A model generated the notes under the pieces. The model was not told the origin of the DNA, did not search any database, and saw only the letters and a list, made by a program, of their open reading frames with translations. From Escherichia phage LotteLoewe_Bas71: a stretch of DNA of 42,712 nucleotides. This document shows, one piece after another, positions 1,823 to 37,409 of the stretch (position 1 is the first letter of the stretch; each line of letters opens with the position of its first letter). A program made the translations under genes and the position numbers. Location: the sequence record PQ850615.1; one strand, given 5' to 3'.

Positions 1823-3304
1823 ATGTTAACTATGAACGGTCAGAATCAGGGTGTTAAGACAAAACACCGGGAATGGCTGCATCACTTCGATAAATGGCAG
1901 AAGGTACGCCACGCTCTTGAAGGCGACCTTATCCGCTATCTGCGCAACGTCGGGAAGAACGAGCCTGACCAGACCTACGCAGCACAGCGACAGGAAGAAT
2001 ACGAGAACGGCGCTATCTGCTACAATTTCACCAAACGCACGCTGGCGGGGATGACGGGGTCAGTGATGCGCAAAGACCCTGAGCAGATTATCCCGCCTGA
2101 ACTTGAGTACCTGTTGCACAACGCTGACGGTTCAGGTGTCGGGCTGTGGCAGCACGCGCAGGATACGCTGATGGAGATTAACTCGATAGGCCGTGGCGGG
2201 TTGCTGGTGGACGCCCCGGAAACAGCCGCAGCAACGGCGGCAGAGCAGAACGCGGGATTATTAAACCCGGTAATCGCATTCTATACCGCGGAGAACATTA
2301 TCAACTGGAGACTCACCCGCATCGGTTCAGTGAACCGCGTGACGATGGTTGTATTGCGTGAGGCATGGGAATACTCGGAACCAGGCGCTGAGTTTGAAAC
2401 AAAATTCGGCGAGCAATACCGCGTCCTTGACCTGATTGACGGTCGCTACCGCCAGCGCATCTACCGCTTCGATGCCGAAGGTGGCGCACAGGATGAAGTA
2501 ATCGAAATCTTCCCGGAACTCGGCGAACAGTTGCGCGGTAAAATCCCGTTCACGTTCATTGGCGCAAGCAACAACGACGCCACTATAGACGATGCGCCTT
2601 TACTGCCGTTAGCTGAGCTAAATATAGGACACTTCAGAAATTCGGCCGATGTGGAAGAGGCCAGCTTTATAGTAGGTCAACCGACACTGTTCATTGCCCC
2701 CGGCGAGAACATGAGCATGGAGCAGTGGAAAGAAGCCAACCCACACGGCATACGCATGGGGTCGCGTTCAGGCCACAACATCGGCTCCGGCGGAAATGCG
2801 TTTCTGGTTCAGGCGGCGGAAACTAACCTCGCCAAACAGAATATGCTGGATAAAGAGAATCAGGCCATCCAGATTGGCGCGCAGCTTATCACCCCGACGC
2901 AGCAAATCACCGCGGAATCGGCCCGCCTGCAACGCGGCGCCGACACGTCAGTCATGGCAACAATAGCACGTAATGTAAGCATGGCGTATACCGATGCGTT
3001 GCGCTGGGTTGCGGGTATGCTTGGGCTTAGTGAAGATACTGAGATTGAGTTCAAGCTGAATATGGAATTCTTCCTGCAACCTATGACAGCTCAGGACCGC
3101 GCTCAGTGGATGGCGGATATTAACGCTGGCCTGCTACCCGCCACCGCTTACTATGCTGCGTTGCGCAAGGCAGGTGTGACTGACTGGACAGATGAGGACA
3201 TTCAGAACGCTATTGAAGACGCACCTCTGCCGTTGGGTTCTGTTGCTCAGGTAGCGGGAGAGATTCCGCAGTCGGCGCAGCAACAGGACACCACTCAGCA
3301 GTAA
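1823..3304 (+). CDS. portal protein
   Basis: 493 aa ORF directly after terminase large subunit with GAGGA SD; size and position typical of portal; acidic C-terminus. Confidence 0.65.
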   Translation: MLTMNGQNQGVKTKHREWLHHFDKWQKVRHALEGDLIRYLRNVGKNEPDQTYAAQRQEEYENGAICYNFTKRTLAGMTGSVMRKDPEQIIPPELEYLLHNADGSGVGLWQHAQDTLMEINSIGRGGLLVDAPETAAATAAEQNAGLLNPVIAFYTAENIINWRLTRIGSVNRVTMVVLREAWEYSEPGAEFETKFGEQYRVLDLIDGRYRQRIYRFDAEGGAQDEVIEIFPELGEQLRGKIPFTFIGASNNDATIDDAPLLPLAELNIGHFRNSADVEEASFIVGQPTLFIAPGENMSMEQWKEANPHGIRMGSRSGHNIGSGGNAFLVQAAETNLAKQNMLDKENQAIQIGAQLITPTQQITAESARLQRGADTSVMATIARNVSMAYTDALRWVAGMLGLSEDTEIEFKLNMEFFLQPMTAQDRAQWMADINAGLLPATAYYAALRKAGVTDWTDEDIQNAIEDAPLPLGSVAQVAGEIPQSAQQQDTTQQ

Positions 3305-3314
3305 GTTCACCTAT

Positions 3315-3336
3315 AGCCCCGAAAGGGGCTTTCTTA
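3315..3336 (+). terminator. intrinsic terminator after portal gene
   Basis: AGCCCC-GAAA-GGGGCT stem-loop followed by TTCTTAT. Confidence 0.5.
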
Positions 3337-3340
3337 TAGT

Positions 3341-4417
3341 ATGCTATTAACTTTAGCGCCACAGGGTTTATCTATGAGCTTACTTACATCCCTAATCAGC
3401 CATCAGATATGGCTGCAACGCACCGCATCCGGTGAGGTGAAAGACCTCACGCCGTTCATTCAGGAGATAAGGGATGAAATCAAACGGCAGGTGCTGTTAT
3501 TCGGTGACGACGGTCGCAGCACTGCGCGACTGAATAAACTGTTACGCGACCTGGAAGAAGCACTAACCGGTATTACGGGTGACTGGCAAACAAAGCTAAC
3601 AGACGACCTTAAGGAACTGGCGGCGTACGAGGCTGAGTGGAACGTAAAGACACTGACCGCCAACGTAGACGCGGAATTTGTTACGCCTACCGCTGAGCAG
3701 GTATGGGCCGCTGCCGAGTTTCAACCATTATCATTGAGCGACAAGCCCGTTGATTTCACCAAGCTGATGGACGGCTGGGGTGAAACGGAAGTAGCACGTC
3801 TTGTAACTGGAGTTAAGATGGGCTTTGTGCAAGGTCAAACCACACGGCAGATTGTTAAGAATGTTGTTGGCGCTGGTGGACTAGCCGACATCTCAGAACG
3901 TAACGCGACTACGGTAATCCGCACCGCGCTGTCCCACGTATCCAACGAGGCCCGTAACGAGACGTACCGCCAGAACGACGACATCATCGAGAAGTACGAG
4001 TGGGTGTCAACGCTTGACAGCCGCACCAGTACGATTTGCAGGGTCAGAGACGGGATGACGTGGGAAATTGGTAAGGGGCCGATGCCCCCAGCCCATCCGA
4101 ACTGCCGGTCGTGCACGGCTCCGGTAATCAGTTCCGAGTTCGACTTCCTCGATAAAGGCGCAAAACGCGCGGCTAAAGGCGCGGAAGGTGGCACTCAGGT
4201 AAGCGCAGACACCACTTACTACGAGTTCCTTAAACAACAACCGGCGTGGTTTCAGGACCAGGCGCTCGGCCCGGTGCGAGGTAAGATTTTCCGTAACAGC
4301 GGTATATCGCCGGAAGAGTTTCGCGTAATATCTGTAGATGGTTTCGGGAATCCGCTCACGCTTAAGCAGATGGCGGAACTCGATAAACGTGTTGCTGATT
4401 ATCTGAAAGGGGAATAA
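3341..4417 (+). CDS. head morphogenesis / minor capsid protein (SPP1 gp7 / Mu F-like)
   Basis: 358 aa ORF following portal, the conserved position of the gp7/F-like head morphogenesis gene. Confidence 0.5.
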   Translation: MLLTLAPQGLSMSLLTSLISHQIWLQRTASGEVKDLTPFIQEIRDEIKRQVLLFGDDGRSTARLNKLLRDLEEALTGITGDWQTKLTDDLKELAAYEAEWNVKTLTANVDAEFVTPTAEQVWAAAEFQPLSLSDKPVDFTKLMDGWGETEVARLVTGVKMGFVQGQTTRQIVKNVVGAGGLADISERNATTVIRTALSHVSNEARNETYRQNDDIIEKYEWVSTLDSRTSTICRVRDGMTWEIGKGPMPPAHPNCRSCTAPVISSEFDFLDKGAKRAAKGAEGGTQVSADTTYYEFLKQQPAWFQDQALGPVRGKIFRNSGISPEEFRVISVDGFGNPLTLKQMAELDKRVADYLKGE

Positions 4418-4878
4418 TGATGGGCTTTTTCAAAGTAACTGACGTACCGTCTCGTCGCGTAGTCCAGTACGCCCGCGTGTCTGGCTCTGGCGAGAACGTG
4501 GTATTTATTGAGGACGAAAGTGTACTCGGTACACTGGTAGATGATATGCCGTTTGCAGATAAAACCGGTATTGCGTTGCCCGCCGCCGGTATGCTTTATG
4601 AAATTCCGTATCTGGCGGACGCTGGCGACGTGTATTTCTCTGCGCAACCGCAGGACGCTGAACTGGCGGGCGGCAGCGCAACCATCACTGTCGAGGTTAA
4701 GGCAGGCAAAGCGCCGTATTCTCTGACCTGGTACAAAGACGGTAAGGAAGTGGTGAATGCGCCTGAGGAGGCTCTGTCTCTGACGGTTAATGCGGTCGGC
4801 GAATACTTCGTTAAAGTTACTGATGCCGATGGAGTAGAGGCGGTAAGCAAAGCGGCGAAGGTTACTAAGCCAGAATGA
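4417..4878 (+). CDS. Ig-like domain protein (possible capsid decoration)
   Basis: C-terminal Ig-like signature (ATITVEVKAGKAPYSLTWYKDGKEV...GEYFVKVTDADG); ATGA overlap with upstream gene. Confidence 0.5.
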   Translation: MMGFFKVTDVPSRRVVQYARVSGSGENVVFIEDESVLGTLVDDMPFADKTGIALPAAGMLYEIPYLADAGDVYFSAQPQDAELAGGSATITVEVKAGKAPYSLTWYKDGKEVVNAPEEALSLTVNAVGEYFVKVTDADGVEAVSKAAKVTKPE

Positions 4879-4881
4879 TAA

Positions 4882-4909
4882 AAGGCCCCATTATGGGGCC
4901 TTAGTTTTC
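4882..4909. terminator. bidirectional intrinsic terminator
   Basis: AAGGCCCC-ATTAT-GGGGCCTT hairpin flanked by A-run upstream and T-run downstream; between convergent genes. Confidence 0.6.
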
Positions 4910-5111
4910 AACGGAATCTTGTGTTTAAATCCTGCTCATGGACAACCCTCAGAACAGTGTCATAATCCCCGTATCTTCCAGGTTCAAATATATCTAATGC
5001 CTTGTAAGCAGACATTGCGTCAGGGAAAACCTGCAGAACCTTTTTAACCCGGCACAAGTCACCGTCGAACTCTTCATCGAACTCTTGAACTACTTCGCAA
5101 ATTGCATACAT
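4908..5111 (-). CDS. hypothetical acidic 67-aa protein (opposite-strand accessory gene)
   Basis: Strong SD (AGGAGGTGA), own promoter at 5139..5167 and terminator at 4882..4909; antiparallel to flanking head genes. Confidence 0.55.
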   Translation of the reverse strand: MYAICEVVQEFDEEFDGDLCRVKKVLQVFPDAMSAYKALDIFEPGRYGDYDTVLRVVHEQDLNTRFR

Positions 5112-5138: not shown

Positions 5139-5167
5139 ATAGTACCCTATTATATTGGGGTGTGCAA
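5139..5167 (-). promoter_or_regulatory. leftward class A promoter for accessory gene 4908..5111
   Basis: On the minus strand TTGCAC (5162..5167) - N17 - TACTAT (5139..5144); same palindromic core. Confidence 0.55.
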
Positions 5168-5208
5168 ACTATTTATTTACGTATTCCAGTTATTCCTCCG
5201 AATTGTAA

Positions 5209-5220
5209 ATGTTGGAATAA
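5209..5220 (+). promoter_or_regulatory. candidate late-promoter motif ATGTTGGAATAA (extended -10-like) upstream of spanins
   Basis: 12-mer identical to 5992..6003; contains TGgAATAA. Confidence 0.3.
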
Positions 5221-5221
5221 A

Positions 5222-5233
5222 CTATTCGAATAG
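5222..5233. repeat. perfect 12-bp palindrome CTATTCGAATAG
   Basis: Everted arrangement of the GAATAG/CTATTC half-sites found in the early promoter cores; adjacent to TTGACT (5234..5239). Confidence 0.5.
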
Positions 5234-5442
5234 TTGACTTTTCACTAAAAATATGATAAGCTCCACCTGAGCTTGTGAAGTATGAACAAGCGACCGCGGC
5301 GCGGGCAGGTAACGGAGCGGGACGTAAGTCCTGAGTGTAGTTACGCTGACGCGTTCGGAAGGGCCATACTCTATTGCTTGTGTAAAAAGTAACAGGTTTA
5401 CTGAGATTACGCCGTTTCTATGTTTAAATGATAAGGACTAGC

Positions 5443-5469
5443 GCCCTGCTTTAAGGCAGGGCTTTACTT
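5443..5469 (+). terminator. terminator/attenuator-like hairpin just upstream of the spanin RBS
   Basis: GCCCTGC-TTTAAG-GCAGGGC followed by TTTACTT; 17 nt before spanin ATG. Confidence 0.4.
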
Positions 5470-5486
5470 ATCGAGAAAGGAGAAAC

Positions 5487-5873
5487 ATGAATCTTAAAGC
5501 AACTGTCGTAGCAGGAGCATGTTTCATCATCCTGGTTTACGCACACGGCATCTACCAGTATCGCAGCGGATGGAACGAAGGCCGGGCTAATCTCGTTTCG
5601 CAGCAACAGCAGAAAGCACAGGCTGAGTTAGCGAAGAAAACACAACGGCAGCAGCAGGATGAATCGAAGGCCGCCGCCGCTGACAACGAAGGCAAGACGA
5701 AATCAGAGGTGATTACCCGTGAAGTCGTTAAGTACATTAAAACGCCTGGTCGCAGCGTGTGCACTTTTGACCCTGAGCGCGTGCAGCTCAAGTCCCGCGC
5801 CGTCGCCAACGCCAATTCCATCCCCGGATACGACGATGATGCAGCCGCCGTGCAAACTGGCGCAGCCAAGTAG
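5487..5873 (+). CDS. i-spanin (Rz-like)
   Basis: N-terminal TM helix (ATVVAGACFIILVYAHGIY), Q/A/K-rich predicted coiled coil; embeds a +1-frame lipoprotein ORF (classic Rz/Rz1 architecture). Confidence 0.65.
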   Translation: MNLKATVVAGACFIILVYAHGIYQYRSGWNEGRANLVSQQQQKAQAELAKKTQRQQQDESKAAAADNEGKTKSEVITREVVKYIKTPGRSVCTFDPERVQLKSRAVANANSIPGYDDDAAAVQTGAAK

Positions 5874-5982
5874 CGACGCTGATGAGGATTTGGCCGTCGA
5901 CGTTCAGAATGCTGAATGCGTACGGCAACTGAGGCTGAAAGTGTTTATGTTGCAGGATTACGTGAGGAATATTCTGGAATAG
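5719..5982 (+). CDS. o-spanin (Rz1-like outer-membrane lipoprotein)
   Basis: +1 frame overlapping the i-spanin; signal peptide with lipobox LTLSAC, proline-rich mature region. Confidence 0.65.
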   Translation: MKSLSTLKRLVAACALLTLSACSSSPAPSPTPIPSPDTTMMQPPCKLAQPSSDADEDLAVDVQNAECVRQLRLKVFMLQDYVRNILE

Positions 5983-10372: not shown

Positions 10373-10785
10373 TGGGCTACTTTGAGGACTTAACAAAAGC
10401 GTTCGATGTTCCGCTGGTAGCCTTCGGAACCGCCAACGGCATCAAGGTTGCGCTTGAAAACATCGACGCGCCGACGTCAACCGATACGCCGTATCTGGCG
10501 AGTTACATGCTACTGGCAGATACCGAGCAGGCGGATTTGTTCTTCACTGAGCAACGCTCTGGTATTTATCAGGTAGACATTAACTACGCATCGGTGAAAG
10601 GTAGCGCGCCAATCAATAAAATGGCAGACTTACTTAACACGGCGTTTAAAGCAGGTAAGTCATTTTCGCGTAACGACATCTGCGCCGAGGTTCAATCGGT
10701 TAGCCTGGGGCCGCTGATTGTAGAAAACGGATGGGCCAAACGACCATTGTCAATTAACTTTATTGCATTCACCAAGAGGCTGTGA
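10372..10785 (+). CDS. putative tail terminator / tail completion protein
   Basis: 137 aa ORF directly upstream of the major tail protein candidate. Confidence 0.35.
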   Translation: MGYFEDLTKAFDVPLVAFGTANGIKVALENIDAPTSTDTPYLASYMLLADTEQADLFFTEQRSGIYQVDINYASVKGSAPINKMADLLNTAFKAGKSFSRNDICAEVQSVSLGPLIVENGWAKRPLSINFIAFTKRL

Positions 10786-11954
10786 ATATGGCTACAACTC
10801 CTTTTAAGGGCGCGAATACCGCGCAATTCTATGTGGCGGAAACTACCCCTGGCGTAACACCGACTAACCCGGTATGGTCGCCGTTGCGTAACACGGGCGG
10901 CGTTCCCGCTGTAACCCGCGATGCACTGACTTCCAACGAACTGGACGGCAGCCGTGAAACTACATCCATCCGAACCGGTAACAAGCAGGTTAGCGGGGAG
11001 TATGCCATCGAACTTAGCTCTCGTAGCCAGGATGATTTCCTTGCGGGAGCGATGACTTCTACGTGGCAAGCTGGGGTAGAGATTACTGGCGCCGAAATTA
11101 CGGTCGCCCCAGCAGGTAAAACATTCACCCGCGCTGCCGGTAGCTTCATTACTGACGGTGTAGAAGTTGGCGACCTTATTGCGTTCACCGACTTAACCGG
11201 CGACAACGCAAAACCGTTTATCGTGACCGCGGTTTCCGCTCTGGTAGTTACGGGCGCAGGTATTCAGCACACGCTGACAGCAGAGACAGTAACCACTGAC
11301 GCAAAAACTGGCGACAAGCTGGAAACCGGTAACGCGTGTAAGACGTTCTCCATCCTGACGTGGTTCAAGGGCCAGTGTGGTAACCCGGACGCGTACATGC
11401 TGACCAAAGGTGTGGAAATCTCTGGCTTTACCGTAGAGCAGGCGGTTAACGCCATGGTCACCGGCAGCTTCCCGTTCATCGGCCTGAGTCAGGAGATTCT
11501 TACCGCGCCGCCGTCCGGCTCTGATTTCTCTCAGGTTACGTTCACCGATGAGCCGTTCTCGTCGGTAGATGTGTCGGTGTTCGATGGCTCCACGCCGTTG
11601 CGTTGCGATACTCTCACCATCACCAACGACAACGGAGCTTCCGCGCAGTTCGAACTCGGTAACAGTAGCGTGGCGTTCGTCGAACGTGGACGCGCAGCTA
11701 ACACATTCTCTATCTCTGGCAAGCTGTACGACATGGCGATGATTCAGAAGTTTATCAACGAGCAGCAGGTAGAGATTAACTCTATTCTGGCAGGGGTAAA
11801 CGGGGCTATGTCTTTCAGTTTGAAACGTGCAGAGCTTACGGCGGTTACACCTGAGATTGGTGGGCCTGAGTCAATCACTCAGTCCATTGAAGGCCAGGCT
11901 ACCGGCAATCAGTACCAGTCGTCTATCGTAATTCAACGTATCACCTACGCATAA
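10782..11954 (+). CDS. major tail protein
   Basis: 390 aa, T/G/S-rich; last structural ORF before the chaperone/tape-measure block; followed by a strong terminator. Confidence 0.5.
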   Translation: MNMATTPFKGANTAQFYVAETTPGVTPTNPVWSPLRNTGGVPAVTRDALTSNELDGSRETTSIRTGNKQVSGEYAIELSSRSQDDFLAGAMTSTWQAGVEITGAEITVAPAGKTFTRAAGSFITDGVEVGDLIAFTDLTGDNAKPFIVTAVSALVVTGAGIQHTLTAETVTTDAKTGDKLETGNACKTFSILTWFKGQCGNPDAYMLTKGVEISGFTVEQAVNAMVTGSFPFIGLSQEILTAPPSGSDFSQVTFTDEPFSSVDVSVFDGSTPLRCDTLTITNDNGASAQFELGNSSVAFVERGRAANTFSISGKLYDMAMIQKFINEQQVEINSILAGVNGAMSFSLKRAELTAVTPEIGGPESITQSIEGQATGNQYQSSIVIQRITYA

Positions 11955-11958
11955 AACT

Positions 11959-11984
11959 AAGGCCCCTTTCGGGGCCTTTTTCTC
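11959..11984. terminator. bidirectional intrinsic terminator
   Basis: AAGGCCCC-TTTC-GGGGCCTT hairpin followed by TTTTCT; between major tail gene and leftward cassette. Confidence 0.6.
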
Positions 11985-12213
11985 ACTCATCAATATTACT
12001 TCGATACTCCCGTAACTTCTCCAGACTTTCAATTGCTTCTGCTAAGTCGGTTCCGGTGTCCTTGTGTCCACGTAAACCCATGCACAATAGCTTCTTCAAT
12101 GCGTGCTGTAACGCCGGGTCGCGGATGTCGAAAGCGCGGAGCACATCATAAACGTCTACTGTCATAGTGCTGCCGTGAGTATTTGTCATTGTGCGGTTGT
12201 ATTTTGAAGTCAT
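11983..12213 (-). CDS. hypothetical 76-aa protein (last gene of leftward cassette)
   Basis: ATGA-coupled to the upstream metallophosphoesterase gene; followed by terminator 11959..11984. Confidence 0.45.
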   Translation of the reverse strand: MTSKYNRTMTNTHGSTMTVDVYDVLRAFDIRDPALQHALKKLLCMGLRGHKDTGTDLAEAIESLEKLREYRSNIDE

Positions 12214-13340
12214 CCCAGCATCTCCGGTGAAATAGTTAAACGTGCGACCTCGCCATATTCGGCGCTATAAGTAATTACGTTTGCGCTACGCCCAGACATC
12301 CATCCGCCGCGCGAGGCGTAGGCGTCTTTCGCCGCTAAGGTGCGGTGTTGCTCAACAATCATGTTACGGCTTTCTACAATCTTCTGGTGGTGCAGGTGGC
12401 CTACGTGGGCGTAGCTGTAAACACTCTCACCGAACGCTTTGCGGAACTTGGCAATCATAACCGGTTCGATAGCGTCGAATCGTGCTTTATGCCCGTGATG
12501 GAAGAACAGCGTCGTTTTGCCGTGTTGCACCATCTTGTAAACATCCGGCGACGTATCAACAATCACTCGGCTGTCGTTTGAGTATAAAACCGTGAACATT
12601 TCGGCAAGCCATACGGAGCCAACAGGGTCGTGGTTACCTTGAACGATTAAAAGTTTTACTGTGTGATGCTTAACCAGCGCCATATCAACAACACGGCGGA
12701 CCATACGAATCATGTAACGTACCAGTTTCTGATAGCGAGTATCCGCATCTAATACATGGCGCGACTCGGGGGTAACGGCATCAAGACTATCGAAGTGTGC
12801 GAAATCACCCAGCAGGTTAATAACTCCTGTTCCTGCATCCGGTGCTTTCTGAAACGCCGCGTCGAACCAACGAGAGAACAGGTCTTCTGCAATCTTCATG
12901 TCCCAGTCGTCGCCGCTCTCATCGGCCCATGCCAGCATACCGAGATGGAAATCAGATACAGTGTAAAGATTGAGTAGCTTGTCGTCACGTTTGGCGCGCG
13001 CCGCTTTAACAGGCGCAACGGGCGTAATCTCTGACTTCATGCCCTCTATTACGGCTTTCATCAATTCAACCTGACGTTCGGCGTCGGTATCAGTCTTAAC
13101 CCATTGCAACTTAGTGTTGCCGAACTCGTCCACAAGTGACGACGTTCCTTTAATCTTGTAGCCGTCTGGCACAAGGTGGCTAACGTCGCGCCCGTGGCCC
13201 ACGCCTTTCTTAGCCAGCTTCGCTTTACGGATACGAATAACTCGGTCTGAGATGCCGTATTTACGGGCGATGTCTACATTCTTCATCCCGGCGTTCAATT
13301 CTTCCTGTAACTGTTCGTCGGTTATTTTCTTCTGGGCCAT
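12210..13340 (-). CDS. HTH-domain + calcineurin-like metallophosphoesterase
   Basis: Complete metallophosphatase motif series DFHLG / GDFAHFD / GNHD / HHGH / GHLHH in order; N-terminal HTH-like segment (NVDIARKYGISDRVIRIRK); GAGGAAG SD. Confidence 0.65.
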   Translation of the reverse strand: MAQKKITDEQLQEELNAGMKNVDIARKYGISDRVIRIRKAKLAKKGVGHGRDVSHLVPDGYKIKGTSSLVDEFGNTKLQWVKTDTDAERQVELMKAVIEGMKSEITPVAPVKAARAKRDDKLLNLYTVSDFHLGMLAWADESGDDWDMKIAEDLFSRWFDAAFQKAPDAGTGVINLLGDFAHFDSLDAVTPESRHVLDADTRYQKLVRYMIRMVRRVVDMALVKHHTVKLLIVQGNHDPVGSVWLAEMFTVLYSNDSRVIVDTSPDVYKMVQHGKTTLFFHHGHKARFDAIEPVMIAKFRKAFGESVYSYAHVGHLHHQKIVESRNMIVEQHRTLAAKDAYASRGGWMSGRSANVITYSAEYGEVARLTISPEMLG

Positions 13341-13405
13341 GCTTACTTCCTCGTGTTTAGGATTTGTCCTATTTAACCACAGTGGATTCCTTTAAATAAA
13401 GGCGA

Positions 13406-13732
13406 CTATTTACTTTCTGCGCCTATCGCCCACCCTGTCATTACCATTTGCAGACGGGTGGCTGTCAGTAGGCTATAGAAAGCATCTCCGTTTTTCTCTA
13501 CCGAACGTATCACTGTGTAGGTTACGGCCTGCGGGGGTAGGCCCGATTTACCAACCTCCACGGCGGCCTCACACTCGCGAACTGTAGAGTCCTTGAACGC
13601 CTTTACAATAGTAGGGTCGGCTTTATCAAGCACACCAGAAGTCATAAGAACAGATTCACTAAATACCTGTTCGCACGGGGCTCCAAAAGTAGCAAAAGAC
13701 ATAAAACCCAGAGCTAGTACTAATTTACGCAT
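13406..13732 (-). CDS. secreted (periplasmic) 108-aa protein
   Basis: N-terminal signal peptide (MRKLVLALGFMSFATFGA), two cysteines; first gene after promoter 13761..13789. Confidence 0.5.
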   Translation of the reverse strand: MRKLVLALGFMSFATFGAPCEQVFSESVLMTSGVLDKADPTIVKAFKDSTVRECEAAVEVGKSGLPPQAVTYTVIRSVEKNGDAFYSLLTATRLQMVMTGWAIGAESK

Positions 13733-13749
13733 AATTATTTCCTCAGTAA

Positions 13750-13778
13750 GTTACATGTGAATAGTACCCTATTATATT
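13750..13778 (+). promoter_or_regulatory. candidate rightward promoter overlapping the leftward one (divergent pair)
   Basis: GTTACA (13750..13755) - N17 - TATATT (13773..13778) on the plus strand within the same palindromic element; upstream of tail chaperone operon. Confidence 0.35.
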
Positions 13779-13789
13779 GGGGTGTGCAA
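13761..13789 (-). promoter_or_regulatory. leftward class A promoter for cassette 13732..11983
   Basis: Minus strand TTGCAC (13784..13789) - N17 - TACTAT (13761..13766). Confidence 0.55.
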
Positions 13790-13806: not shown

Positions 13807-13896
13807 GTTTGCGCCTAGTGTCGCACACGAAAAGCGGGTGGTTCCCGCCTGGCGCATTAACCATAACCAGTAACCTCTTAACCAAAGGACTAAAGA

Positions 13897-14313
13897 ATGA
13901 AACTTTCTGATTTCTATTTTGCCGACCGCCACGCCGCCGGTACTAAAATGCCTATCCTTCTGCCCAGTGGTAAAGATTCCGGTGAATGGTTGCAGGTCAT
14001 CGGCCCCGATTGTGACGCTGGTGTTCGTGCGGGCCGTGCCTACACAACGGCAATTCGACGCCTTACGGAAGAACTTGCGCCATTAGATAAAGAGTGCGAG
14101 GCGCTGAATAACTGGGCGCGCTATAATGATGAGAAGGGCTGGCGGGTGATGGACCTGAACAAGCAGCTTGCCGTGGAAATCGTCACCGGTTGGTCATTCG
14201 ACGAACCATTCAGCAAAGAGGCGCTTGCTAACCTGTTCGACCAGTACAGTGGGTTGGCAGAGGCCGTAGTTAAGCATCACACCGATAGCCGTGAGAAACT
14301 CTCGGAAAAGTAA
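13897..14313 (+). CDS. tail assembly chaperone (G-like)
   Basis: Located immediately upstream of the tape measure gene; followed by a -1 frame ORF reachable by frameshift. Confidence 0.55.
   Translation: MKLSDFYFADRHAAGTKMPILLPSGKDSGEWLQVIGPDCDAGVRAGRAYTTAIRRLTEELAPLDKECEALNNWARYNDEKGWRVMDLNKQLAVEIVTGWSFDEPFSKEALANLFDQYSGLAEAVVKHHTDSREKLSEK
14305..14313 (+). other. candidate programmed -1 ribosomal frameshift site (GAAAAGTAA)
   Basis: Lys codon AAG immediately before stop TAA, with AAA available in the -1 frame; -1 frame is open into the tape measure start. Confidence 0.45.
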
Positions 14314-14675
14314 AAGCGCTGTATGAATTTGCGCAATGGTGCTTTGTCGACCGCCACAAACGTAAGCAATTCGACGACATCGCGGCGGGCCACCAGGCGG
14401 CTTTGATTGCAATGGGCGTGATTAAAGAACCGCAGATGAAAGAAGCGACGGGGCCAGAATGCCCCGTTTCTCTTATCGACGTGTTCGAGAAATACCGTGC
14501 CATTAAATTCCTACAGCGCGAAACAGATGATACTATCGTTATAATCCCGCGCGATGCGCTCAAATGGCAAGATTTGGTAGCGTTTCGTGATGTCGCCGGT
14601 TACGGCATAAGTTTGTTCGAAGCCGAGGTTATCATGGGCTTAGACGGAATATTTGAGGGCAGAGAAGATGGCTGA
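14307..14675 (+). CDS. tail assembly chaperone -1 frameshift extension (GT-like product)
   Basis: -1 frame is open from 14295 to 14675 and overlaps the tape measure start; lysine codon AAG sits directly before stop TAA with A AAA AG context (14305..14313). Confidence 0.45.
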   Translation, partial: KVKALYEFAQWCFVDRHKRKQFDDIAAGHQAALIAMGVIKEPQMKEATGPECPVSLIDVFEKYRAIKFLQRETDDTIVIIPRDALKWQDLVAFRDVAGYGISLFEAEVIMGLDGIFEGREDG

Positions 14676-36187: not shown

Positions 36188-36216
36188 TTGCACACCCCAA
36201 CATAATAGGATACTAT
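36188..36216 (+). promoter_or_regulatory. early promoter, class A (TTGCAC-N17-TACTAT) with palindromic core
   Basis: -35 TTGCAC 36188..36193, 17-nt spacer, -10 TACTAT 36211..36216; core CATAATAGGATACTATTCA. Confidence 0.55.
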
Positions 36217-37380: not shown

Positions 37381-37409
37381 TTGCACACTAATATAGAATA
37401 GGCTACTAT
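37381..37409 (+). promoter_or_regulatory. early promoter, class A (TTGCAC-N17-TACTAT)
   Basis: Same architecture and core (TAGAATAGGCTACTATTCA) as 36188; follows terminator 37266..37296. Confidence 0.55.

Follow-up and report, generated by a model that had tools for sequence, protein, structure and literature searches.

According to a 2026 preprint, mutants of phage Bas1 that escape the reverse-transcriptase defence DRT7/UG10 have missense changes or frameshifts in Bas01_0050, whose toxicity in E. coli prevented its co-expression; its describers call it 'a nucleic acid-targeting phosphoesterase', which is a prediction, and the lambda counterparts of these escapers are gam mutants (bioRxiv 10.64898/2026.02.16.706125). 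The supplement of that preprint does not list the Bas01_0050 mutations. Gp48 of mycobacteriophage A10ZJ24, also a toxic metallophosphoesterase, is expressed early, has phosphodiesterase and nuclease activity, degrades host DNA and is dispensable on a permissive host (PMC12287305). Here we analyse a leftward three-gene cassette at positions 11,959–13,789 of record PQ850615.1 from Escherichia phage LotteLoewe_Bas71 (42,712 nucleotides (nt); this whole stretch is referred to as the window), the central gene of which encodes a helix-turn-helix (HTH) metallophosphoesterase. Bas01_0050, from Escherichia phage AugustePiccard (Bas01, Drexlerviridae), is 44% identical to this protein over 376/376 residues (E=1e-110): both are 376 amino acids (aa) long, have the same domain architecture and belong to one PHROG-type family. 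The settings differ, as the Bas01_0050 gene follows replication genes and precedes holin and endolysin, with neither a secreted or Imm gene nor a 76-aa gene adjacent, and toxicity and DRT7 escape are known for Bas01_0050 only, not for the window protein. Gp48 serves as a mechanistic precedent by its described activity, not by sequence; its first motif lies at residue 10, and it therefore lacks the N-terminal HTH and the linker of the 376-aa protein.

We read the cassette, with a probability of about 0.55, as an early accessory unit of three independently exchangeable slots that would combine an envelope exclusion function, a DNA-directed phosphodiesterase and an accessory to nucleotide metabolism. 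The modular part of this reading is much firmer than the functions given to the individual genes. All three genes are on the minus strand: slot 1 encodes a 108-aa protein (13,406–13,732), slot 2 the 376-aa phosphoesterase (12,210–13,340) and slot 3 a 76-aa protein (11,983–12,213). They run against their rightward neighbours, the tail-tube gene on one side (10,782–11,954, plus strand; Pfam Phage_tube_2, E=5e-38) and the tail chaperones on the other (13,897–14,313 and 14,403–14,675, plus strand; Phage_TAC_4 and Phage_TAC_18). The window belongs to Kagunavirus (subfamily Guernseyvirinae), a genus of small siphoviruses that depend on O-antigen or capsule. Many Kagunavirus genomes are 90–95% identical over the 2.15-kilobase (kb) region, the closest being the BASEL phages Bas75 and Bas70 at about 95%, and the region is present in 453 deposited phage records. 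Bas75 has the same leftward trio, flanked by a 'minor tail' (tail-tube) gene and by the tail assembly chaperones; its annotation calls the middle gene a DNA repair exonuclease and the outer two hypothetical. The cassette sequence, found in hundreds of deposited genomes, is neither rare nor new, and its three proteins are experimentally uncharacterised: the BASEL paper (PMC11990801) does not discuss the locus, and searches of the Guernseyvirinae and Kagunavirus literature turned up no functional study of it.

A transcription unit nested in the tail genes

The three leftward open reading frames (ORFs), the promoter and the terminator that the initial annotation had placed here were all recovered. 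Each gene is preceded by a Shine-Dalgarno sequence. In comparison with phage Jersey, the ratio of nonsynonymous to synonymous substitution is 0.12 for the 108-aa gene, 0.09 for the 376-aa gene and 0.04 for the 76-aa gene (synonymous change being near-saturated), and with ratios this low the genes are real and constrained by purifying selection. The 376-aa gene ends and the 76-aa gene begins within one tetranucleotide, ATGA (12,210–12,213), an overlap of stop and start codons that indicates translational coupling; the slot-3 gene overlaps the phosphoesterase stop codon in every examined locus that is free of an HNH insertion. No structural-protein family in Pfam or PHROG matches any of the three proteins, and a role in the virion or tail is argued against by the opposite strand and the separate promoter.

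The predicted promoter of the cassette, TTGCAC-N17-TACTAT (13,761–13,789, minus strand), is of sigma-70 type and is one of four copies of a 29-nt motif with a conserved core, against 0.01 copies expected in the window. The other three copies, at 5,139–5,167 (minus), 36,188–36,216 (plus) and 37,381–37,409 (plus), are near-identical to it (motif TTGCACAC...AATAGG.TACTAT), and each lies 20–30 nt 5' of a ribosome-binding site. The copy at 5,139–5,167 precedes a lone leftward 67-aa gene within the head module, and those at 36.2 and 37.4 kb precede two rightward runs of small genes. In Jerseyvirus the counterpart is TTGCAT-N17-TATTAT, with hexamers and spacing kept and flanks diverged, and the strict motif is found between tail chaperone and phosphoesterase gene in 30 of 45 related loci. 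A generic promoter scan of the window did not call the cassette promoter, because its -35 element matches at only 3/6 positions. What had been termed a 'class A' promoter is thus a real, repeated and conserved promoter class. The four copies look like one co-regulated class, probably early, which would mark early transcription by the host polymerase.

At the other end of the cassette, a terminator scan recovered a hairpin at 11,959–11,978 (AAGGCCCC-TTTC-GGGGCCTT) with a GC-rich stem of 8 base pairs (bp), which is predicted to act as an intrinsic terminator on both strands, for the major tail gene (rightward) as well as for the cassette (leftward); its T-run is better on the plus strand (for the major tail gene) than on the minus strand. 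Two Jerseyvirus annotations, those of PVP-SE2 and Shelanagig, have a bidirectional terminator at the corresponding site, and a stable hairpin occupies this position in 41 of 42 related loci. The terminator that had been assigned to the cassette is conserved and would serve both directions. By its sequence signals the cassette has both the promoter and the terminator of an independent transcription unit, and the description of the trio as accessory and separately transcribed, not as a tail component, is supported; its promoter class is also that of the two small-gene units at 36–38 kb.

The same promoter class is found with a second antiparallel insertion, the single 67-aa gene in the head-gene block (4,908–5,111, minus strand). 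Its product has a sole, weak match to phrog_27256 (E=4e-4), a family of unknown function.

Exchange of alleles in the flanking slots

We compared 71 IMG/VR loci that had been retrieved with the phosphoesterase. Slot 1 holds an Imm-like gene in 29 of them and a gene of the 108-aa type in 11, and no locus has both. The remaining alleles encode proteins of 107, 114 or 120 aa, all of which combine a predicted signal peptide with two cysteines (the 114-aa form is a distant member of phrog_14165, E=7e-7), or an N-terminally membrane-anchored protein. In the Jerseyviruses Shelanagig and PVP-SE2 and in Kagunavirus 22664BS2, slot 1 is filled by a 59–63-aa gene annotated as superinfection immunity; the Shelanagig protein matches Imm_superinfect (PF14373) at E=1.9e-15, above the cut-off, and for the other two the assignment is by annotation. 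Among deposited phage records, approximately 350 have an Imm-like gene (at least 60% identity) and 98 have the 108-aa gene, a sum close to the 453 cassette records. Slot 1 is by prediction always a small envelope-targeted protein, and we therefore propose a role in exclusion or in the envelope. Exclusion had been one of the functions suggested for the cassette, and it fits a slot that is allelic with a bona fide superinfection-immunity gene of the T4 Imm type.

The N-terminus of the 108-aa protein is basic and is followed by one hydrophobic core (Kyte-Doolittle 2.3) and a c-region of small residues; the mature part, predicted to be approximately 90 aa long, is acidic. Signal-peptide heuristics fit 12 of 12 homologs, and C20 and C54 are invariant. 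The protein was initially annotated as secreted with a signal peptide; the n-, h- and c-region pattern and the cysteine pair agree with this, the cleavage site being the ambiguous part, and Sec-dependent export to the periplasm would follow. The AlphaFold2 model is all-helical, with a predicted local distance difference test (pLDDT) score of 79.6. The protein matches phrog_14165 (E=7e-56) and is of narrow distribution, with 22 clusters in 5.8 billion proteins and 98 phage records, all Guernseyvirinae; it has no relative in Pfam (even at E<=10), in NCBIfam or among PDB sequences. Two known exclusion-type families were considered for it and rejected. T4 Imm, whose family fills slot 1 in most Guernseyvirinae, is its equivalent in position only: the 108-aa protein has no Imm_superinfect (PF14373) match and a single, N-terminal hydrophobic segment. 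T4 Spackle, which is periplasmic, offers an analogy in being small and helical with two cysteines and a signal peptide (a predicted one in the 108-aa protein), yet the two have no sequence or fold similarity (PDB 6x6o, 7cn6).

Slot 3 is exchanged in the same manner. Phages L AB-2017, K1ind2 and 22664BS2, like 16 of the IMG/VR loci, have in this position a pair of genes for a PNKP-type HAD phosphatase (HAD_PNKP, PF25109, E=4e-20) and a deoxynucleoside monophosphate (dNMP) kinase (phrog_139, E=1e-45), and this pair never co-occurs with the 76-aa gene. Rarer alleles are unrelated small proteins of 49, 66 and 102 aa, and homing endonucleases and, in Jerseyvirus, a Rha/ANT-type gene are optional extras at the locus. 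The 'ATPase' of phage L AB-2017 is the dNMP kinase; it replaces the 76-aa gene and is not its ancestor, and descent of the 76-aa gene from it as a remnant was rejected, BLASTP having found no similarity. In gene content, the variant with metallophosphoesterase, HAD phosphatase and dNMP kinase (L002, L014 and the 16 IMG/VR loci, L019 and L026 among them) recalls Metis and PUA-Cal-HAD, bacterial defence pairs of a calcineurin-like and a HAD protein that deplete nucleotides.

The 76-aa protein, which is small and helical, aligns to the C-terminal approximately 70 positions of the longer phrog_2452 (E=2e-36) and of phrog_17613, with the domain pattern KY.R...DVYDVL.AF....QHALKKLLC.GLRGHKD..DL.EAI. 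A direct PDB sequence search with it returned nothing significant. The domain is present in 773 phage records, alone or fused to unrelated N-terminal regions, as in an Acinetobacter phage protein and in gp79 of the Nonagvirus SE1. The latter, from a Salmonella phage, is an unannotated 251-aa protein (2,919–3,674) that carries the domain at its C-terminus, has no Pfam match and lies within a cluster of 7-deazaguanine DNA-modification genes, a context that hints at a tie between the domain and nucleotide or DNA metabolism.

One deposited genome, that of phage Henuyfy11N, annotates the 76-aa protein as DUF3310. Indeed, DUF3310 (SaV-like), the C-terminal domain of the T7 gp1.7 nucleotide kinase, shares with it a pattern that can be seen by eye ([HK]Y ... 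D.I.A ... K.L.R.G.K ... DL.KA), and DUF3310, like the 76-aa domain, occurs alone or as a C-terminal module. All statistical tests of membership in DUF3310 (PF11753) were negative, and the identity is unproven: a Pfam scan of 22 members of the 76-aa family gave no hit, three hhalign runs of the family against DUF3310 gave non-significant E-values of 0.06–0.47, hmmsearch with the family recovered neither T7 gp1.7 nor the DUF3310 protein of Pseudomonas phage MPK9, and the 76-aa protein and T7 gp1.7 have no PHROG in common. In MPK9 (3,217–4,637), the homologous HTH-phosphoesterase gene begins within a true DUF3310 gene (E=2.9e-14); the pair ends a lambda-like nin region ahead of holin and endolysin, where lambda has ninI and Q.

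The initial annotation took the cassette for one system in which a periplasmic protein is coupled to a DNA-binding phosphoesterase. An integrated machine of this kind, whose periplasmic component would signal to or work with the phosphoesterase and the 76-aa protein, agrees with the single promoter and single terminator common to the three genes, with the translational coupling of genes 2 and 3 and with a gene order kept from Kagunavirus to phage Jersey. The distribution of the alleles goes against it. All four combinations of slot-1 and slot-3 alleles are seen (17, 11, 6 and 5 loci) with no association between the slots (Fisher p=0.73), and the phosphoesterase of 22664BS2, 99.7% identical to the window protein, has wholly different flanking partners. 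In approximately 1,500 phages of other groups (among them Drexlerviridae, a group at approximately 74% identity, Vibrio and Pseudomonas phages), the phosphoesterase has neither partner and usually lies beside lysis or replication genes; a constant small partner was sought in Drexlerviridae and Vibrio phages, and none was found. The 108-aa family, moreover, has 98 phage records against 2,037 for the phosphoesterase. Since the alleles reassort and the phosphoesterase stands alone elsewhere, the three genes are co-transcribed and not co-dependent. The integrated system is largely refuted, and we regard it as very improbable. Of the initial proposal of an accessory system for host takeover, anti-defence or exclusion, what is supported is an accessory unit with such roles, and what is unsupported is the single coupled system.

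The HTH-phosphoesterase and its target

An AlphaFold model of the 376-aa protein, built on a 50-member alignment (pLDDT 90.9), has a three-helix HTH (residues 8–44) like those of LuxR, GerE and FixJ, a linker of a beta-hairpin and a helix (61–102) and a catalytic domain (119–376) with the alpha/beta sandwich fold of the calcineurin-like superfamily. The metallophosphoesterase motifs are SDFH (130–132), GDFAH (178–182), GNHD (235–238), H282 and GHLHH (314–318), and D130, H132, G178, D179, N236, H237, H282, G314 and H317 are invariant among 50 diverse homologs. Having been named an HTH-plus-metallophosphoesterase at the outset, the protein keeps that name, with the HTH, every motif and invariant ligands in place. 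Its Pfam scores are below the curated cut-offs (22.0 bits against 27 for Metallophos and 17.2 against 21.5 for Metallophos_2, with a GerE match likewise sub-threshold); as the scores are low and it is the fold that is recognised, we place it in a divergent subfamily of calcineurin-like binuclear metallophosphoesterases. It matches phrog_704 ('DNA repair exonuclease') at E=1e-162 over residues 3–375. The family counts 3,768 word-indexed hits, 4,554 clusters at 50% identity and 2,037 phage records, spread over Drexlerviridae, Dhillonvirus-like phages, Webervirus, Vibrio, Campylobacter and Rhodobacter phages and roseophages; every Guernseyvirinae record recovered has it.

The top three fold matches of the model, PolD DP1, SbcD and Mre11, are all DNA nucleases, and this favours, at the level of a model, a DNA-directed phosphodiesterase. 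The similarity is distant: SbcD, Mre11 and archaeal PolD DP1 are 12–17% identical to the 376-aa protein, and the profile-to-PDB E-value of approximately 0.4 is not significant. A direct PDB sequence search gave nothing significant, and the 50-sequence profile found only sub-threshold GerE, SbcD and metallophosphoesterase matches in the PDB. Where the three nucleases have capping and partner-binding domains, the 376-aa protein has its HTH and beta-hairpin linker, and no nuclease capping domain was identified in the model.

These fold matches would also suit a housekeeping nuclease of replication or recombination, one that processes phage DNA ends or hairpins in the manner of SbcD/Mre11 and whose flanking genes are unrelated morons. 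Consistent with this are the presence of the gene in every Guernseyvirinae record found and in approximately 2,000 phage genomes, its place where the replication region ends, in Drexlerviridae and MPK9, and the homing endonucleases inserted beside it, a common fate of conserved genes of DNA metabolism. Bas1, however, survives frameshifts in its homolog, so that the gene is dispensable there, and the toxicity of that homolog to E. coli when expressed alone argues for host targets. Together with the lack of both a Rad50/SbcC-type ATPase partner and a capping domain, and with a promoter common to the small-gene units at 36–38 kb and a location outside the replication operon, this makes the housekeeping account unlikely in our view. 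The HNH homing-endonuclease genes beside the phosphoesterase gene have been inserted repeatedly, in several unrelated phage groups (phage 590B, 1,928–2,398; L016, 39,208–39,693; L011, 4,741–5,250; also L021, L024, L025, L036 and L068). In phage 590B the phosphoesterase ORF itself was left unannotated.

The enzyme might instead act on a small molecule or a protein, with the HTH used for autoregulation only: candidate activities are degradation of cyclic-nucleotide immune signals, editing of the nucleotide pool and protein dephosphorylation of the lambda NinI type. The slot-3 alleles next door that are nucleotide enzymes (HAD phosphatase and dNMP kinase) would suit such a target, as would the nucleotide depletion by the calcineurin-like and HAD pairs of Metis and PUA-Cal-HAD and the position of the gene at the place of lambda ninI, before the lysis genes, in the lambdoid-like MPK9 and in Drexlerviridae. 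Set against these are the identity of the top fold matches, the retention of the DNA-binding HTH as a fusion in nearly all of the approximately 4,500 family clusters, and the prediction of a nucleic-acid target by the authors of the DRT7 study too. A target other than DNA accordingly seems quite improbable to us. Still further from likely, to the point that we give it hardly any weight, is a protein that is chiefly a transcription regulator, for instance of a switch to late or lysis genes, with the enzyme domain secondary. The resemblance of the N-terminal HTH to LuxR/GerE/FixJ DNA-binding domains, a weak PHROG match to a 'late transcriptional activator' (E=9e-4) and a position immediately ahead of the holin and endolysin genes (in Drexlerviridae, MPK9 and Vibrio phages) all speak for it. 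Yet the catalytic metal ligands are invariant across the family, which points to selection for enzyme activity; the Bas1 homolog can be frameshifted without loss of plaque formation, which would be unlikely for an essential late-gene activator; and in the window phage the lysis genes lie away from this gene.

The preferred reading of an early accessory unit with a DNA-directed phosphodiesterase draws on the homolog. By way of Bas01_0050 and the preprint, the slot-2 family is tied to defence sensing and does harm to the host, and at least one phage can dispense with it. Host takeover and anti-defence had been among the roles initially guessed for the cassette, and a full-length homolog that is dispensable, is toxic and determines DRT7 sensitivity agrees with the guess. 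Several points weigh against the reading. The DRT7 data come from a preprint and concern a homolog that is distant (44% identical) and belongs to a phage of another family, and there is no ORF for an SbcC/Rad50-type ATPase or a polymerase partner in or beside the cassette. As the phosphoesterase is universal in Guernseyvirinae, it may have a core function in replication or recombination, and not in host takeover. The early timing of the cassette is deduced solely from the promoter class. In slot 1, the exclusion role is assigned by position alone to a protein for which neither sequence nor structure comparison gave a relative of known function, and whose signal-peptide cleavage site is ambiguous in this allele, where a proline follows the best AXA-like site.

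In the sequence of events that we envisage, the host RNA polymerase would transcribe the cassette from the repeated promoter soon after infection, the unit lying antiparallel within what would be the late tail operon of Kagunavirus. The 108-aa protein would be exported and oxidised in the periplasm, forming a disulfide bond, and, judging from its slot equivalence with Imm, would hinder superinfection or DNA entry by related phages. The HTH-phosphoesterase would bind DNA through its HTH and cut or trim the host chromosome or DNA ends early in infection, as is suggested by the fold, the HTH, the lambda Gam parallel and the fact that the homolog is toxic; such cutting would explain both that toxicity and the escape of Bas1 from DRT7 upon loss of the homolog. 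The 76-aa protein, or the HAD phosphatase and dNMP kinase in its stead, may perhaps serve the same nucleic-acid or nucleotide-salvage step or tune the enzyme.

A more specific pair of claims, that phrog_14165 is a new class of exclusion factor and that the HTH-metallophosphoesterase is a targeted early nuclease sensed by DRT7/UG10, is tentative, and we consider it doubtful that both hold. If they did, phrog_14165 and its allelic cousins (predicted signal peptide, two cysteines) would stand in for the Imm membrane protein in siphoviruses by acting in the periplasm, and a sequence- or structure-targeted attack on host DNA or its ends would be the danger signal that DRT7/UG10 reads. The slot-2 nuclease would then be a functional parallel to lambda Gam, and the coupled slot-3 proteins would be its interchangeable modulators.

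For the window itself the outcome is chiefly one of clarification, in that the cassette, though real and accessory, is modular. The slot-2 family is among the most widespread uncharacterised phage enzymes (approximately 2,000 phages, including T1-like, Dhillonvirus, Webervirus and Jersey-like therapy groups) and is newly implicated as a determinant of sensitivity to reverse-transcriptase defence; its substrate, once known, would explain what DRT7 senses. Slot 1, with its Imm-like, several unrelated secreted two-cysteine and membrane-anchored proteins, is a natural allelic series for finding exclusion mechanisms, which are relevant to the design of phage cocktails.

Other elements near the cassette and in the head genes

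A 19-nt element, CGGGAACCACCCGCTTTTC (13,829–13,847, minus strand), lies between the start of the tail chaperones and the cassette promoter. It consists of a GC hairpin with a T-run on the minus strand, occurs once in the window and is invariant between Kagunavirus and Jerseyvirus amid diverging surroundings; its fold z-score is only -1.9. Termination of antisense transcription and the binding of a protein are two possible roles of the element.

The two tail-chaperone ORFs (13,897–14,313 and 14,403–14,675, plus strand) are separated by a gap and read in different frames, and the Shelanagig pair is annotated as a product of programmed frameshifting. A GC-rich hairpin is found at 14,447–14,468. 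Finally, genes for Rz-like spanins are annotated amid the head-gene block of Bas75 (5,187–5,682, corresponding to approximately 5,487–5,980 of the window), distant from any holin or endolysin seen in that part of the genome.

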